This document shows, one piece after another, positions 36,065 to 58,051 of a stretch of DNA of 59,358 nt. This DNA comes from a bacterium CG_4_10_14_0_2_um_filter_33_32. GTDB taxonomy: Bacteria > Patescibacteriota > CPR2_A > CG2-30-33-46. Under the pieces are notes generated by a model. It ran no database searches. It saw only the letters and a list, made by a program, of their open reading frames with translations, and had not been told where the DNA came from. The DNA lies in NCBI GenBank assembly GCA_002792735.1, contig PFOW01000058.1:1-59358 (forward strand), given 5' to 3'. The position numbers and the translations under genes are program-made. Numbering within the stretch: the first letter of the stretch is position 1; each line of letters begins with the position of its first letter.

Positions 36065-37126
36065 ATGAGAATATTAGGAATTGAAACAAGTTGTGATGAT
36101 ACTTCAAGCGCTGTCATTGAGGCTCAAAAAGAGAAGATAAAATCTTTATCTAGCATTGTTTCTTCACAAAATAAGCTTCATGAGATATATGGTGGTATAG
36201 TTCCAGAAGTGGCCTCTCGCGCCCATATAGAGACTATTATTCCAGCCATTAAAGAATCGTTAAAAAGATCCAAGTCTTCTTTGAAGAATATAGATTTGAT
36301 CTCGGTAACCCGTGGTCCTGGTTTGGTTGGATCTTTATTAATTGGCATAAATACTGCAAAGACGATATCCTTTGTTAATAATTTGCCAATAGTATGCGTA
36401 AATCATCTAGAAGGGCATATCTATGCTAATTTTGTTGACCAAAAAGAGAGAATAGAGTTTCCGTTGATTGTACTTATAGTATCCGGCGGTCATACAATGT
36501 TGGTTTATATGAAAGACCATTTGAAATATAAGATATTAGGACAAACTAAAGATGATGCTGCAGGGGAAGCTTTTGATAAAGTTGCCAGGGCATTGGGCTT
36601 GGGTTATCCTGGGGGGGCAATAATAGAGAAAATATCGAAAGAAGGTGATCCTGAAAAATTTAAGTTTCCAAAAGCAGAAATGGAAAGCAAAATCATTAGA
36701 TTAGAAAGCGGCTATCTTAAAAAATTGCCACCTAATTTAGATTTTAGTTTTTCTGGCTTGAAAACAGCGGTTATAAATGAAGTTAGGAAACATAAAACAA
36801 AGAATAAAAGTTTTATTGCAGATATTGTTGCAAGTTTTCAGAAAACATCTGTTGATATTTTAGTAGCAAAAACAATTTGGGCAGCAGAAAGAAAAAAGGT
36901 AAAAACGGTTTTAATATCCGGAGGAGTTGCGGCCAATGCTATATTAAGAAAAGAATTGCAAAAAAAGTGTCAAATTCAAGGTTTTAATTTTTTTGCGCCT
37001 CCTAAAAATCTTTGTACTGATAATGCGGCAATGATTGCGGCTGCCGGATATTTCAAATATAAAAATAAAGGTCCCGATCTATTAGAAAAAATAAAAGTTA
37101 ATCCAAATTTAAAGCTCGGTAAATAA
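36065..37126 (+). CDS. tsaD: tRNA N6-adenosine threonylcarbamoyltransferase TsaD
   Basis: Kae1/TsaD motifs (ILGIETSCDDTS, HLEGHI, SGGHT, SGGVAAN). Confidence 0.93.
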   Translation: MRILGIETSCDDTSSAVIEAQKEKIKSLSSIVSSQNKLHEIYGGIVPEVASRAHIETIIPAIKESLKRSKSSLKNIDLISVTRGPGLVGSLLIGINTAKTISFVNNLPIVCVNHLEGHIYANFVDQKERIEFPLIVLIVSGGHTMLVYMKDHLKYKILGQTKDDAAGEAFDKVARALGLGYPGGAIIEKISKEGDPEKFKFPKAEMESKIIRLESGYLKKLPPNLDFSFSGLKTAVINEVRKHKTKNKSFIADIVASFQKTSVDILVAKTIWAAERKKVKTVLISGGVAANAILRKELQKKCQIQGFNFFAPPKNLCTDNAAMIAAAGYFKYKNKGPDLLEKIKVNPNLKLGK

Positions 37127-37145
37127 AAGCAAATTTAATCTTTTA

Positions 37146-37174
37146 TTGACCTTATTTTGAACAAGGTTTAAAAT
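37146..37174 (+). promoter_or_regulatory. Sigma70-like promoter of the T-box leader
   Basis: TTGACC (37146-37151), 17-nt spacer, TAAAAT (37169-37174). Confidence 0.5.
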
Positions 37175-37182
37175 ATAATTAA

Positions 37183-37331
37183 ATCGATAAAGCGATGAAG
37201 GAGACTAACTAACTCCAGAGCTTCGGCTGGTTCGGCCGTTATCGAATCAAAAGAGCGCTCTGATGTATATCAGAGAAATTGGGTGGAACCGCCCACAAGG
37301 GTCCCAATGCGTATAGCATTGGATTTTTTAT
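37183..37331 (+). promoter_or_regulatory. T-box riboswitch leader (transcriptional; probable Thr specifier ACU)
   Basis: T-box sequence AAATTGGGTGGAACCGCC (37276-37293). Antiterminator ATTGGG/CCCAAT plus GCCC/GGGT around the 7-nt bulge TGGAACC. Competing terminator CCAATGC (37304-37310) / GCATTGG (37316-37322) plus T6. Stem III CTCTGAT/ATCAGAG (37258-37275). K-turn AGC-GAU-GA...GA-GCU with 9-nt loop ACUAACUAA (37204-37212). Confidence 0.85.
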
Positions 37332-37353
37332 TTAACAGGGTGAAGGAGAAAGG

Positions 37354-37944
37354 ATGGAAGAAGTTTTTAAAATTTCATTTGAGCAAAAGTTTGATCGTAA
37401 AGATTGGTCAGTAGTAATTAATTGTGGGGAGAAAATCAAGCTTCCTGATGGAACATTCTTGAATAATTTCGAATCAGGATTATTTAAGAATACGAAATTT
37501 TCTGCTGATAAGTTATTAGTTTTTGAGGTTGGAGATAATTTTGAAGTAAGCCAAGCAATTGCCAATTATTGCAAAGAAAATTGGACTCAAGTTTCTGAAT
37601 TATATCCTGAAATCGAGGAATTTAAGGGAACTGAATTTTATCGATCACCAAAAATAAAACTTAATAACCTTGAATTTAATTTTTGGTACTGTAAAGAAGA
37701 TTTTTCTTGCAGAATTCATAAAGATCACGACTTTTTCGAGGTTCATATTCAGATATTAGGTCAAGGAGAAATGCAGAAATTTTTCCAGAACGATGAAAAT
37801 ACTATGTATTATCGGGATATTCTATCGTCTGGGCAAACCCATAACCCCTTTTATGATATAAACTGTAAGTATCCATGGCATAGATATTATTCTAATTCTA
37901 AATGTATTTGGTTAGCTATCGAAAGCAAAGTAATTATTCCATAA
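37354..37944 (+). CDS. Hypothetical protein, possibly cupin-like
   Basis: SD GAAGGAG upstream. 196 aa. A His/Glu-rich segment (RIHKDHDFFEVHIQILGQGEMQKF) is reminiscent of cupin metal sites. No confident family. Confidence 0.55.
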   Translation: MEEVFKISFEQKFDRKDWSVVINCGEKIKLPDGTFLNNFESGLFKNTKFSADKLLVFEVGDNFEVSQAIANYCKENWTQVSELYPEIEEFKGTEFYRSPKIKLNNLEFNFWYCKEDFSCRIHKDHDFFEVHIQILGQGEMQKFFQNDENTMYYRDILSSGQTHNPFYDINCKYPWHRYYSNSKCIWLAIESKVIIP

Positions 37945-37951
37945 AATTATT

Positions 37952-38473
37952 ATGAGAGATGATATTATCCAAAAAGCAATAAGTAAATTTTATGAAATAA
38001 GAGATATACCTTATCATATTTCTGTTAGTGACCAAGAGGAATACAATGATTGTGAAGGAAAGAATAAAAAACTAGCTAAAGCGTTAGAGGATTTGGGTTA
38101 TAAAGTTAGATTTAGAGTTGGTTTATTTTACTGGAATGTTGTAAAACTGCCAAAAGAGATATTAGAAATACCTCATAATGAAGATTGCTCACACTTTTTT
38201 ATAGAAGTAACGCTTCCTGATAAAAACGAATGGGTTTTTGTGGATGCTACTTGGAATAAAGAACTTAAAAATGCCGGATTTATAGTAGCTGAATGGGATG
38301 GAGTAAATCAAACAGAATTAGCTTTTGAATGTTATGAAGTATTAGGATCTGAAGATTCAAGACGCTACTTAGAAAATATTAATTATGAAAAAGATCTGAA
38401 AACAAATGGTAAGTTTTACGAAGCTATAAATAAGTATTGCGACAGCTTTTTAAAGCCTCACAAAAATGAATAA
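37952..38473 (+). CDS. Transglutaminase-like (papain-fold) domain protein
   Basis: Cys...His...Asp order and context typical of transglutaminase-like cysteine peptidase cores (DCEGKNKKLAKALEDLGY; CSHFFIEV; WVFVDATWN). Confidence 0.55.
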   Translation: MRDDIIQKAISKFYEIRDIPYHISVSDQEEYNDCEGKNKKLAKALEDLGYKVRFRVGLFYWNVVKLPKEILEIPHNEDCSHFFIEVTLPDKNEWVFVDATWNKELKNAGFIVAEWDGVNQTELAFECYEVLGSEDSRRYLENINYEKDLKTNGKFYEAINKYCDSFLKPHKNE

Positions 38474-38483
38474 TAAATTAAAA

Positions 38484-38554
38484 GCCCGCCCTCACTTTCA
38501 GTTTTTGGCGGGCCTCAGCCTCTACAAAGAATGAATATTTCGAGGCTTTGGGAG
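38484..38554 (+). promoter_or_regulatory. Conserved two-hairpin intercistronic element, copy 3 (ends in the thrS SD)
   Basis: GCCCGCC (38484-38490) / GGCGGGC (38507-38513). AGCCTC (38517-38522) / GAGGCT (38542-38547). SD GGGAG 38550-38554, ATG 38562. Confidence 0.6.
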
Positions 38555-38561
38555 AATAACC

Positions 38562-40313
38562 ATGAATAAAAAAGAGAAAAAACAAGATTTACAAACACTA
38601 AGGCATTCCGCAGCTCATGTTTTAGCTCAAGCAGTCTTACAAATGTTTCCGGAAGCCAAACTTGCGATAGGACCATCAACTGATGAAGGATTCTATTATG
38701 ATTTTGATCTGCCAAGAACTTTAATACCGGAAGATTTAGATATTTTAGAAAAAAAGATGAAAGATATAATAAAAGCCGATTATCAGGTTAAGCCAGAGGA
38801 AGTAGTAAAGGAAAAAGCGCTGGATTTTTATAAAAAGGGAAAACAGGTATACAAACGCGAGCTAATTAACGATATCCCTAAGAAAAAAGTTTATTTTTAT
38901 AGGCAGAATGATTTTGTTGATCTATGTGCCGGTCCTCATGTTAAATCAACAGGAGAGATTAAAGCATTTAAACTCTTGAAAATTGCCGGAGCTTACTGGC
39001 GAGGGGACGAGAAAAGACCCATGTTGCAGAGGATTTATGGTACTGTTTTTTATACTCAAAAAGAACTTGAAGAATATTTGAAAAATTTAGAAGAAGCGAA
39101 AAAAAGAGACCATCGAAGACTAGGGAAAGATTTAGATCTTTTCGTATTTTCAGATTTAGTTGGGCAGGGTCTTCCTTTATTTACACCAAAAGGAACTATT
39201 ATACGTCAAGAAATGCAGAAATATTCTAGCGAATTGAGAAAAGAAATTGACTATCAGGAAGTTAGTACCCAAGAGATAAATAAAGGTGAATTATTTAAAA
39301 TCTCCGGCCATTACGAGAAATATAAAGAAGATATGTTTCAAATTTTTTCTCATCACACAAAAGAAGAATATTTTTTAAAGCCCATGAATTGTCCCCAGCA
39401 CACCCAGATTTACGCCTCTAAAATAAGAAGCTATAAAGATCTACCTTACAAAGTAGCTGATTTCTCAATGATTTATAGAGATGAGAAGCCGGGTGAGGTT
39501 GGTGGATTAACTAGAGTCAGAGGGTTTGAGATGGACGATGGACATTGTTTCTGTAGAGAAGATCAGATAGAAGCAGAATTTGATAAAGTTCTAAAAGCCA
39601 TTAAAAAAGCACTTAAGACCTATGGCATGGATTTTTATGTAAGACTTTCCTTAAGGGATCCGAAAGAGAAAGCTAAATATCTTGGTGATGATCAAGTTTG
39701 GAACAAATCTGAAAAAATATTAGAAAAAATAGCTAAAGATAACAAAATCTCTTATGAAATAGGGATAGGTGAAGCAGCTTTTTACGGTCCTAAGATGGAT
39801 ATTATGGCAAAAGATGCTTTAAATAGAGAACACCAGATTTCCACTATCCAGTTGGATTTTAACATGCCTAAGAGGTTTAATTTAAGTTATGCAAGTGATG
39901 ACGGCAAAAATTATATGCCGGTTATGATTCACAGCGCTCTTATCGGTTCGATTGATAGATTTTTGGGAGTTCTAATCGAACATTATGCCGGCGCTTTTCC
40001 AGCTTGGCTAGCTCCTGTTCAGGTAATTATTATTCCGATATCTGATAAGAAACATCTAAAATATGCCAAAGAAATAAGTAAAAATGTTTTAGAAAAAGAT
40101 ATTAGGGTTGAGATTGACTCAAGGCCGGAATCAGTTGGTAAAAAAATAAGAGAAGCGGAACTTCAAAAAATTCCTTACATGTTTATTGTTGGAGATAAAG
40201 AGATTAAAGCAAAGAAAATATCGGTTAGAAACTACAAAAAAGGCGATTTAGGCCAAAAGAGTTTAAAATTTATAGATGATATCAAACAAGAGATTGATAA
40301 AAGACAGGGTTAG
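38562..40313 (+). CDS. thrS: Threonyl-tRNA synthetase (no N-terminal TGS domain)
   Basis: Begins at the editing-domain HSAAH motif, then CAGPH, class II catalytic core and anticodon-binding domain. 583 aa. Confidence 0.96.
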   Translation: MNKKEKKQDLQTLRHSAAHVLAQAVLQMFPEAKLAIGPSTDEGFYYDFDLPRTLIPEDLDILEKKMKDIIKADYQVKPEEVVKEKALDFYKKGKQVYKRELINDIPKKKVYFYRQNDFVDLCAGPHVKSTGEIKAFKLLKIAGAYWRGDEKRPMLQRIYGTVFYTQKELEEYLKNLEEAKKRDHRRLGKDLDLFVFSDLVGQGLPLFTPKGTIIRQEMQKYSSELRKEIDYQEVSTQEINKGELFKISGHYEKYKEDMFQIFSHHTKEEYFLKPMNCPQHTQIYASKIRSYKDLPYKVADFSMIYRDEKPGEVGGLTRVRGFEMDDGHCFCREDQIEAEFDKVLKAIKKALKTYGMDFYVRLSLRDPKEKAKYLGDDQVWNKSEKILEKIAKDNKISYEIGIGEAAFYGPKMDIMAKDALNREHQISTIQLDFNMPKRFNLSYASDDGKNYMPVMIHSALIGSIDRFLGVLIEHYAGAFPAWLAPVQVIIIPISDKKHLKYAKEISKNVLEKDIRVEIDSRPESVGKKIREAELQKIPYMFIVGDKEIKAKKISVRNYKKGDLGQKSLKFIDDIKQEIDKRQG

Positions 40314-57581: not shown

Positions 57582-57612
57582 CAAAAGCCCCTCCAATATT
57601 AATCGGAGGGGC
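57582..57612 (-). terminator. Rho-independent terminator of rnpB
   Basis: Minus strand: GCCCCTCC / GGAGGGGC (57605-57612 with 57587-57594) followed by TTTTG. Confidence 0.7.
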
Positions 57613-58051
57613 TAGCAGGCAGATCTATAAGCCGAGTTCTGTTCCCGATATTAATCGGGATGCAATCATCTATCTTGATTCTTCATTGCTGAAGAATTCT
57701 AGCAACCAGACCCTGTAAAAAATGCCGAGTAAACAATTTTCCTTAGAGCACCAATTTCATCTTTAGAATGATTTTGATTTCTTTAGGATTCTTACAAGGT
57801 CCACTGGTCTTGCACCGGATGGGGTTTACCATTCTGATAAGTCACCTTATCAGATAGAGGGGTCTTACTCCCTCACTTTTCACCCTTAGTCGCCTTAGGC
57901 GACCGGTATAGTCTCTGTGGCACTTTCCCTAGGCTTTTCCTTATATAAATCGGGATTACGCCCGGTTCCCGTTAGGAACCATCCCACTCTTTGGTGCTCG
58001 GACTTTCCTCCCCGATGTAACTCGGGGCGATTGCACGATCCACCTGGATCA
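57612..58051 (-). ncRNA. rnpB: RNase P RNA, bacterial type A
   Basis: Reverse complement contains GGAGGAAAGTCCGAGC (57996-58011), TAAGGGTGAAAAGTGAGGGAGTAAGACCCCTC (57857-57888) and ACAGAACTCGGCTTAT (57627-57642). P1 pairs CAGGTGGATC (58038-58047) with GATCTGCCTG (57616-57625). End coordinates are approximate. Confidence 0.9.

Follow-up and report, generated by a model that had tools for sequence, protein, structure and literature searches.

A minimal T-box leader upstream of thrS in a CPR bacterium, probably threonine-specific and acting by transcription attenuation

Current models of T-box riboswitches hold that leaders acting on transcription need a long Stem I for the fast capture of tRNA via its elbow, and that a truncated Stem I goes along with translational control, specificity for ileS and dependence on Stem II. 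The Stem II with its S-turn is, to our knowledge, missing only in glycine leaders. These glyQS T-boxes, in which the loss of Stem II has been attributed to the strong GGC:GCC pairing, act on transcription and have kept the elbow platform on a long Stem I, while their IIA/B pseudoknot is missing. The ultrashort (US) Stem I leaders are known from Actinobacteria (Sherwood, Grundy and Henkin 2015, as cited in reviews and later papers); in these descriptions all of them belong to ileS and act translationally via Shine-Dalgarno sequestration, and the S-turn of their Stem II latches the codon-anticodon helix and is required. Within the searchable part of the literature, a Stem I with the specifier in its terminal loop is described only for these translational actinobacterial ileS T-boxes, and a transcriptional Thr T-box without an elbow platform and without Stem II is a variant not previously described.

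The leader reported here was found in a 59,358-nucleotide stretch of contig PFOW01000058.1 (the window), whose source organism belongs to the CPR/Patescibacteria; the genome is small and AT-rich, with a local GC content of about 33%. The elements of the leader and the genes downstream of it lie on the + strand. The leader is probably a minimal Thr-specific T-box riboswitch with a reduced decoding module, which controls an ORF1-ORF2-thrS operon by transcription attenuation. Its length from the transcription start to the U-run is only about 150 nt. An initial annotation had identified it as a T-box leader from the letters alone, and inspection of 37146-37329 verified the elements listed there. 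This identification is borne out by a match to the Rfam T-box family RF00230 at 37186-37309 (54.1 bits, E = 3.2e-11 in a search of a 401-nt stretch), in which the K-turn, F-box, Stem III and T-box are all aligned, whereas the 72 model positions of the distal Stem I are reduced to 5 nt and the 25 positions of Stem II to a single one. The score nevertheless remains below the RF00230 gathering score of 93, and the match surfaces only if an E-value threshold is applied to a short stretch. Consequently, no T-box appears in the output of a gathering-threshold Rfam scan of the whole window, the only match of which is an RNase P RNA.

The similarity to canonical RF00230 leaders, such as those of Bacillus tyrS and thrS, is extensive. 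Common to both are the K-turn at the base of Stem I, a loop that begins 4 bp beyond this K-turn and carries the specifier codon and a following purine on its 3' side, the IIA/B pseudoknot with the F-box CCGUUA, the succession of RRRxG, Stem III and AA, an antiterminator with a UGGN bulge closed by a G-U pair and overlapping an intrinsic terminator, and an aminoacyl-tRNA synthetase gene downstream. The UGGA sequence is also present in a thrS leader from Bacillota (L038), which scores 114 bits. In contrast to canonical leaders, the AG bulge, distal loop and elbow platform are absent, so that the specifier lies in a terminal instead of an internal loop, and Stem II with its S-turn is absent as well. 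The US ileS T-boxes, known from the Mycobacterium tuberculosis and Nocardia farcinica structures, share with the leader the short Stem I with a terminal-loop specifier, the lack of the platform, the basal K-turn and the IIA/B pseudoknot, and they hold the tRNA by the anticodon and the 3' end only, as would also be expected here. They differ in that the CPR leader carries an intrinsic terminator with a U-run instead of sequestering the Shine-Dalgarno sequence, displays a Thr codon in front of thrS, lacks Stem II and comes from Patescibacteria/CPR. Transcriptional control without Stem II is shared with the glyQS T-boxes, but unlike these the leader has lost the platform, kept the pseudoknot and displays the codon ACU (ACC in its relatives).

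Four independent relatives from the Patescibacteria/CPR have a common layout with the window (L001, L085, L088 and L101; thrS identity 63-81%) and show compensatory changes; the exact layout was thus found in five sequences in all, including the window. A hand-curated alignment of these five pairs in 98.3% of the cells and contains changes on both sides in 19 of 45 pairs, while none of 500 shuffles equals it and slid controls pair in only 29-48% of the cells. Alignments A2 and A3 were hand-fitted to the structure, and the stems of A3 were selected for their pairing. An unguided MAFFT alignment evaluated with RNAalifold recovers Stem I, Stem IIB, Stem III and both antiterminator helices A1 and A2. 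When compared with RF00230, L001 scores 41.6 bits. Of the 14 homologous proteins of ORF1, the first gene after the leader, all except that of L001 are encoded beside sugar-phosphate mutase genes without a T-box. In a metagenome scan for the pattern AGCTTCG..CGTTA..TGGGTGGAACC, the only matches were two duplicates of L085 and one due to chance, and the thrS relatives P0024, P0026 and P0021 have no upstream T-box. An apparent T-box match in L005 was rejected, as the other strand encodes a protein there and the match falls within this ORF.

The leader is preceded by a sigma-70-type promoter with 10 of 12 matches at 37146-37174, consisting of TTGACC (37146-37151), a 17-nt spacer and TAAAAT (37169-37174), which places the inferred transcription start at about 37181, roughly 9-10 nt upstream of Stem I. 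The distance from the end of the -10 box to the base of Stem I is 16-17 nt in the window as well as in L001, L085 and L101, and L088 contains a TATAAT at a matching distance, as judged by eye. A -10 box this close to Stem I excludes a longer Stem I upstream, and promoter position and RF00230 alignment agree on the absence of a long Stem I with AG bulge, distal loop and elbow platform. The 32-nt ultrashort Stem I (37191-37222) is supported by the RF00230 alignment, by folding of the window sequence, which recovers the hairpin, and by pair changes in the four relatives. It consists of a 3-bp base helix AGC/GCU (37191-93 / 37220-22), the K-turn internal loop GAUGAA opposite AGA (37194-99 / 37217-19), a 4-bp upper helix GGAG/CUCC (37200-03 / 37213-16) and the 9-nt terminal loop ACUAACUAA (37204-37212). 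The annotated capping of Stem I by this loop after only 4 bp is corroborated by the model alignment, from which the distal Stem I is deleted. The K-turn had been called canonical, which holds for the window, where the GA/K-turn motif matches the RF00230 consensus with high posterior probability; the perfect consensus does not extend further, however, the motif being degenerate in all four relatives.

The terminal loop had been noted to contain two copies of a Thr codon with a purine after it. Only the second copy, ACU at 37208-37210 with the purine A37211, survives comparison, since the homologous loop position reads ACC-A in L001, L085 and L088 and ACC-G in L101, and the alignment of the ACC-R-N of the relatives with ACU-A-A of the window fixes the second ACU as the predicted Thr specifier. 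It is the sole ACU in the conserved register, and the first ACU, which is out of register, is coincidental. An alternative register of codon, one purine and helix was rejected in favour of ACY-R-N: the window would then display the Leu codon CUA and the relatives the Pro codon CCA, so that the two would conflict and neither would suit thrS. A mimic of the anticodon arm for binding of ThrRS, known from the E. coli thrS operator, was likewise discarded, because the loops hold the codon ACC or ACU and no anticodon. At the third specifier position C is usually preferred, and the ACU of the window departs from this; with a GGU anticodon it would form a weak A-U / C-G / U-G helix, and both known stabilising domains are missing from the leader as well. 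No T-boxes with any other codon were found in the window or the fetched loci. A tRNA-Thr gene was found neither in the window nor in the 10 kb past its right-hand end nor in about 100 fetched loci; on the other side, contigs carrying the first gene of the window end about 0.1-0.2 kb past its left-hand end.

The 3' half of the leader had been annotated as textbook. In the 5' part of the discriminator (37249-37277), a purine linker, AAAAGAGCG, contains the RRRxG motif as GAGCG (37253-57) and is followed by Stem III, an inverted repeat CUCUGAU/AUCAGAG (37258-64 / 37269-75), and by AA (37276-77). The relatives have GAGUG (L001, L088 and L101) or GAGAG (L085) at the corresponding position and AA after Stem III in each case, and 7 of the 11 Stem III pairs are changed on both sides. 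This flanking arrangement of RRRxG, Stem III and AA has been described in a review (PMC7583486). The T-box sequence AAAUUGGGUGGAACCGCC (37276-37293) leads into the antiterminator (37278-37308), as supported by the RF00230 alignment and folding energy, with helix A1 AUUGGG/CCCAAU (37278-83 / 37303-08), the 7-nt bulge UGGAACC (37284-90) and helix A2 GCCC/GGGU (37291-94 / 37299-302), which is closed by a G-U pair and shows changes on both sides in three pairs among the relatives. These elements, all part of the initial annotation, are in place and conserved in the relatives. The same is true for the expression platform, an intrinsic terminator (37304-37329) of the hairpin CCAAUGC-GUAUA-GCAUUGG (37304-37322), an A and a U6 run (37324-29), which shares 5 nt (37304-37308) with the 3' strand of A1 and has equivalents in L001, L085, L088 and L101. 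The hairpin with its U6 is the sole terminator-like site on the + strand between 36900 and 38700. The terminator hairpin alone has a calculated energy of -11.0 kcal/mol, and a minimum free energy of -20.8 kcal/mol for the 3' domain in the terminator state, against -11.2 kcal/mol for the antiterminator, predicts that termination is favoured without ligand.

Downstream of the terminator, a Shine-Dalgarno sequence AAGGAG (37343-48) remains unpaired in both the terminator and the antiterminator fold. It precedes two ORFs without a Pfam family, ORF1 (196 aa, 37354-37944) and ORF2 (173 aa, 37952-38473), and the thrS gene (583 aa, 38562-40313), whose product matches tRNA_SAD, tRNA-synt_2b and HGTP_anticodon. 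The annotated association with thrS holds, thrS being the third gene after the leader, 1.2 kb downstream; in L101, no other gene stands between the leader and thrS. We infer that ORF1, ORF2 and thrS are co-transcribed as a regulated operon (37343-40313). No other terminator-like site occurs on the + strand from the leader to 38700, and the promoter-like sites on this strand of the same region, at 37830 and 37919 with 9 of 12 matches, both lie inside ORF1.

The segment between Stem I and the purine linker allows two readings. A second hairpin at 37224-37238 had been proposed to form a three-way junction with Stem I, closed by the helix UCGAUAA/UUAUCGA (37184-37190 / 37239-37245) and replacing the usual Stem II domain. 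This 7-bp helix does exist in the window, where it is part of the minimum free energy fold of 37176-37250 and, as a bare duplex of -6.4 kcal/mol, is stronger than the competing Stem IIB (-4.6 kcal/mol); each of the five sequences could also form a short AUAA/UUAU pairing. The 7-bp helix is not conserved, however: only 61.8% of its cells pair, three pairs fail outright and the duplex energy in the four relatives is +1.0 to -1.0 kcal/mol. Moreover, it competes for the CGA at 37243-37245 with Stem IIB, which shows changes on both sides in five of six pairs, pairs in 100% of the cells, is recovered by RNAalifold on the unguided alignment and has duplex energies of -2.7 to -6.8 kcal/mol in the five sequences. 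Since CCGUUA at 37236-41 also aligns with the F-box of RF00230, the three-way junction is unlikely, and the hairpin fits better as the IIA stem in a canonical IIA/B pseudoknot (37224-37248) with IIA CGGC/GCCG (37224-27 / 37235-38) and IIB GGUUCG/CGAAUC (37229-34 / 37243-48), both of which pair in all five sequences. A single nucleotide, U37223, separates Stem I from Stem IIA, and together with the RF00230 alignment this indicates the absence of a Stem II with S-turn.

A wider set of CPR leaders upstream of thrS shares the principle but not the exact architecture. Seventeen others (L006, L007, L009, L011, L013, L015-L017, L020, L023-L025, L029, L062, L065, L082 and L096) contain a short hairpin with ACC and a purine in its terminal loop (ACU in L011) and the UGGAACC bulge, and those that were read as far as the 3' end have a terminator too. 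Most of them differ from the window by a 7-nt loop YUACCAA, and in many a 3-bp helix that covaries encloses both Stem I and a second hairpin, where the window has the K-turn hairpin and the F-box pseudoknot. None of the 17 scanned CPR thrS leaders passes the RF00230 gathering threshold.

By the established T-box mechanism, the anticodon of uncharged tRNA-Thr would pair with the loop codon ACU, a GGU anticodon forming a G-U wobble and an AGU isoacceptor pairing fully, while GGU would form full Watson-Crick pairs with the ACC of the relatives. The tRNA's free 3'-NCCA end, which the UGGA bulge predicts to be U73-C-C-A, would pair with UGGA (37284-87) and stabilise the antiterminator, allowing RNA polymerase to read through, whereas the 3' end of Thr-tRNA could not dock, leaving the more stable terminator fold and a stop at 37324-29. 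Recognition would then consist of two base-paired contacts, to the anticodon and to the 3' end, with the pseudoknot serving as a hinge in the absence of the elbow contact and the Stem II purine latch. Tentatively, and as a reading that appears possible though short of probable, CPR bacteria may use a minimal co-transcriptional T-box of this kind, which recognizes tRNA-Thr by a loop-loop contact of its anticodon with the small terminal loop and by an NCCA-bulge helix, without a platform or a Stem II latch.

It could be argued instead that the leader senses only the 3' end via its discriminator domain, the loop not being a specifier at all, and is either non-specific or made specific by a protein cofactor. 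Such a sensor would fit the loss of both known stabilisers of the codon-anticodon pairing, the degenerate K-turns of the relatives and the predicted weakness of the codon-anticodon helix in the window. It would not account for the Thr codon and purine that 22 of 23 CPR thrS leaders display at one and the same place in the loop, on completely different stems: all 22 Stem I loops have A and C as the first two letters of the codon, the third position is C or U, making a synonymous C to U the sole change in the codon, and the next position is a purine. The stems, by contrast, vary, 55 of their cells being changed on both sides. Hairpins with terminal loops ending in ACY-R(-N) occur in 19 of the 23 leaders, compared to 2.8 on average and at most 8 in mononucleotide shuffles, and in three further leaders the loop ends in ACC-AAA. 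A sensor of the 3' end only is therefore quite improbable. The last alternative, a canonical T-box in decay, left with a constitutive or leaky terminator and no tRNA response, would suit the sub-threshold RF00230 score and a small, AT-rich genome of about 33% local GC, but can hardly be credited given the compensatory changes that maintain the helices at a thrS identity of only 63-81%, the intact UGGAACC bulge, RRRxG-Stem III-AA motif and terminator, and the lack of any other strong promoter for the essential thrS in the promoter scan.

The leader joins an ultrashort Stem I carrying its specifier in the terminal loop with an intrinsic terminator, in the absence of Stem II, and its relatives across the CPR do likewise. 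If it works as read here, it would contain, at about 150 nt, the smallest natural decoding module of a transcriptional T-box, which would make the minimal requirements of tRNA recognition directly testable, and such a compact, codon-programmable tRNA sensor would be a handy part for engineering. As none of the 17 CPR leaders passes the gathering threshold, annotation by Rfam thresholds overlooks T-box control across much of the diversity of bacteria. Should the proposed recognition mode hold, the platform and Stem II would be dispensable even for transcriptional control, and the reduced design would be the norm for thrS across the CPR.

The leader upstream of thrS is most aptly classed as a T-box variant, and we infer that it likely acts as a Thr-specific transcriptional T-box. 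Re-reading of the sequence recovered every element listed in the initial annotation at its position, namely a promoter (TTGACC-17-TAAAAT, 37146-37174), a 32-nt hairpin representing Stem I (37191-37222, composed of AGC, GAUGAA, GGAG, the loop ACUAACUAA, CUCC, AGA, and GCU), another small hairpin (37224-37238), Stem III (37258-37275), the T-box sequence (37276-37293), antiterminator helices A1 (AUUGGG/CCCAAU) and A2 (GCCC/GGGU) around the bulge UGGAACC, and a terminator consisting of CCAAUGC/GCAUUGG plus U6 (37304-37329), which is the sole terminator-like site on the plus strand within 36900-38700. An Rfam scan of the whole window at the gathering threshold left the T-box unreported and retrieved RNase P RNA only, which is of bacterial class A (57612-58046, minus strand; RF00010, 234.5 bits) and carries insertions of about 50 and 21 nt relative to the model. 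A search of 37050-37450 with the T-box model RF00230 under an E-value threshold produced a match of 54.1 bits (E = 3.2e-11), short of the gathering score (93). High posterior probabilities accompany the matches to the K-turn, F-box, Stem III, and T-box, while 72 model positions of the distal Stem I correspond to 5 nt and 25 positions of Stem II to 1 nt. The leader possesses the antiterminator, terminator, specifier, K-turn, IIA/B pseudoknot, and Stem III motif of a T-box, but lacks a distal Stem I, a Stem II, and a score reaching the Rfam gathering value.

Homologous leaders of the same order, as sought by the initial annotation, are present 5' of thrS in four further loci (L001, L085, L088, and L101). 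All share a 3-bp base helix, an asymmetric internal loop, a short helix, and a terminal loop of 9-11 nt, followed by a hairpin of 3-4 bp, (C/G)CGUUA, a purine-rich linker ending in GAGNG, and then Stem III, AA, the UGGAACC antiterminator, and a terminator with a U-run. In an alignment of the five leaders, segmented by hand and fitted to the structure, 98.3% of the cells pair, and two-sided changes occur in 19 of 45 pairs. Not one of 500 shuffles reached the observed values, and slid partners paired in 29-48%. Because this alignment was fitted to the structure, RNAalifold was also run on an unguided MAFFT alignment, which independently recovered the upper Stem I helix, IIB, Stem III, and the A1 and A2 helices.

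The assignment of the specifier to Thr is well supported by sequence comparison, since a fixed loop codon stands against variable stems. The terminal loops read ACUA-ACU-AA in the window, AUUC-ACC-AA in L001, CCUC-ACC-AA in L085, AAAUUA-ACC-AC in L088, and AUUA-ACC-GC in L101, and thus have in common a Thr codon followed by a purine, one more nucleotide, and the helix. This pattern identifies the second ACU of the window (37208-37210) as the specifier, so that the proposed ACU codon in the terminal loop holds in this register, while the first ACU is coincidental. An alternative codon register, reading Leu in the window versus Pro in the relatives, was rejected. UGGAACC leaders were found at 17 further CPR thrS loci, and a hairpin with a terminal loop ending in ACY-R(-N) occurs in 19 of 23 CPR leaders (mean of 2.8 and maximum of 8 in shuffles); three more end in ACC-AAA. 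Within these 22 Stem I hairpins, codon positions 1 and 2 are always A and C, position 3 is C in 20 hairpins and U in the other 2, and a purine comes next, whereas the stems are wholly different, with 55 cells changed on both sides. As the stems were chosen for pairing, the informative result is their variability versus the fixed loop.

For the middle domain, the initial annotation had proposed a three-way junction enclosed by the helix UCGAUAA/UUAUCGA (37184-37190 with 37239-37245). The window does contain this helix (-6.4 kcal/mol), but the junction is not conserved: the best equivalents in the four relatives range from +1.0 to -1.0 kcal/mol, and just 61.8% of the cells pair in the five-leader alignment. 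The conserved alternative, as judged from covariation, is the canonical Stem IIA/B pseudoknot, in which IIA is formed by CGGC/GCCG and IIB by the loop segment GGUUCG (37229-37234) with CGAAUC (37243-37248), the F-box CCGUUA being located between the IIB strands. IIB reads GAUUCG/CGAAUC in L001, GGA(a)CC/GGUCC in L085, and GG(u)AAC/GUUCC in L088 and L101; five of its six pairs are changed on both sides, all cells pair, and its energy is -2.7 to -6.8 kcal/mol in every sequence. U37223 alone lies between Stem I and IIA, leaving no Stem II. A perfect K-turn consensus is likewise confined to the window; all four relatives keep an asymmetric internal loop but lack the tandem G-A pairs. This degeneracy fits the view that the K-turn chiefly positions Stem II (PMC7583486), which is absent here.

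Terminator and antiterminator are mutually exclusive as proposed, sharing 37304-37308 between the terminator and helix A1. The isolated antiterminator is calculated at -11.2 kcal/mol, the terminator hairpin alone at -11.0 kcal/mol, and the minimum free energy (MFE) fold of the 3' domain, an extended terminator plus a GGGUGG/CCGCCC helix occupying the bulge, at -20.8 kcal/mol. Such a balance is typical of T-boxes, whose antiterminator needs the tRNA in order to prevail. The GGGUGG/CCGCCC helix, which hides the T-box bulge in the ligand-free MFE fold (37281-37296), may lock the off state further; it was not seen in relatives whose A2 helix is longer. The Shine-Dalgarno sequence (37343-37348), located 3' of the terminator, escapes sequestration, indicating transcriptional control. 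The distance from the end of the -10 box to the base of Stem I is 16-17 nt in the window, L001, L085, and L101, and a TATAAT recognized by eye occurs at the same distance in L088, placing the RNA start about 10 nt before Stem I and leaving no room for a hidden longer Stem I upstream.

While the parts, their conservation, and the codon are read directly, the mode of action is deduced from the established T-box mechanism. Uncharged tRNA-Thr would bind the loop codon through its anticodon and UGGA through its 3'-NCCA end, and these contacts would stabilize the antiterminator and allow transcription into ORF1-ORF2-thrS; charged tRNA would be unable to dock, and the terminator would form. The stronger reading of a two-contact minimal T-box is tentative, and we regard it as a somewhat doubtful but serious possibility. 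The ACU of the window would pair with a GGU anticodon via wobble; full pairing would be possible with a tRNA-Thr(AGU), as present in some AT-rich bacteria. The UGGA bulge predicts U73 in tRNA-Thr. UGGA is carried by all CPR thrS leaders and also by three Firmicutes-type thrS T-boxes (L038, which exceeds the gathering score with 114 bits; L064; and L080). Since Thr identity does not depend strongly on position 73, which differs among species (reviewed in PMC9976931), the prediction is plausible and a genome-by-genome matter. Neither the window, nor the 10 kb to its right, nor any of the loci examined yielded a tRNA-Thr gene; on the left-hand side, contigs sharing the first gene of the window (also found on MNYB01000002.1 of assembly GCA_001872935.1) end about 0.1-0.2 kb beyond and so add almost nothing. 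Just past the right-hand end, a cluster of GmrSD-like (DUF262/HNH), EcoRI-methylase-like, and T5orf172/GIY-YIG genes (L099/L100, 2801-5866) adjoins a tRNA-Ser(UGA) of the same genome and looks like a small defense or mobile island. In many non-CPR phyla, including Ignavibacteria, Zixibacteria, Cloacimonadota, and KSB1, thrS is preceded at a distance of about 250-400 nt by a tRNA-Val(GAC) gene (many loci among L035-L069, e.g., L036 3639-3713 and L037 3664-3740), which in a CPR2 genome is located 1.4 kb upstream of thrS (L085 8546-8622); this linkage is widely conserved.

As the initial annotation stated, thrS lies downstream of the leader, with two intervening genes: ORF1 (37354-37944, 196 aa) and ORF2 (37952-38473, 173 aa), neither matching a family in Pfam or NCBIfam, precede the ThrRS gene (583 aa; tRNA_SAD, class II core, and anticodon-binding domains). 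In the genome collection, no species representative exceeds 59% identity to this ThrRS, the best matches all being Patescibacteria/CPR MAGs; the nearest in the larger protein collection is encoded on a Logan contig (L001, 81%), followed here by L085, annotated as candidate division CPR2 (65%), and L088 (63%), which is itself 81% identical to L101. Only 14 homologues of ORF1 occur among 5.8 billion clustered proteins; the one in L001 likewise lies between leader and thrS, and those in L002, L003, and L004 adjoin phosphogluco/phosphomannomutase and nucleotidyl-transferase genes. ORF1 thus resembles a passenger within the thrS operon. No gene separates leader and thrS in L101, and the CPR2-like relatives carry a different small ORF of 101-107 aa without Pfam family between T-box terminator and thrS (L085 9587-9892, L088 9691-10014), suggesting that this slot has been filled more than once.

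In the papers covered, T-boxes whose Stem I is intermediate or ultrashort are translational, and the ultrashort class, with its specifier in the terminal loop, always regulates ileS. The window leader resembles that class in its terminal specifier loop and missing platform only. For short-Stem-I leaders, the TBDB search was confined to Actinobacteria and to class I hits whose Stem I is truncated, and we found no literature on CPR/Patescibacteria T-boxes or on minimal or truncated transcriptional ones, which is absence of evidence only, as few subscription papers were covered. The initial interpretation thus was largely right, apart from the codon register, the pseudoknot replacing the three-way junction, and the unconserved K-turn. 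A second reduced design was observed in thrS leaders of other CPR MAGs (L013 526-600, L015 3724-3815, L016 3793-3860, L017 3646-3715, L023 3756-3825, L025 3770-3840, L029, and L062), in which the specifier occupies a terminal loop of 7 nt, YUACCAA, that matches a tRNA anticodon loop in format (Y32 U33 NNN R37 A38). Its Stem I and second hairpin are enclosed by a covarying 3-bp helix (GGC/GCC, GAC/GUC, CGC/GCG, CAC/GUG, or UGC/GCA) between the conserved strands YUGAUUG and CCYAAG; it is without an F-box and has long terminators 3'. Reduced T-box designs, at least two in number and including that of the window leader, appear to be common 5' of CPR thrS genes, where standard annotation misses them.
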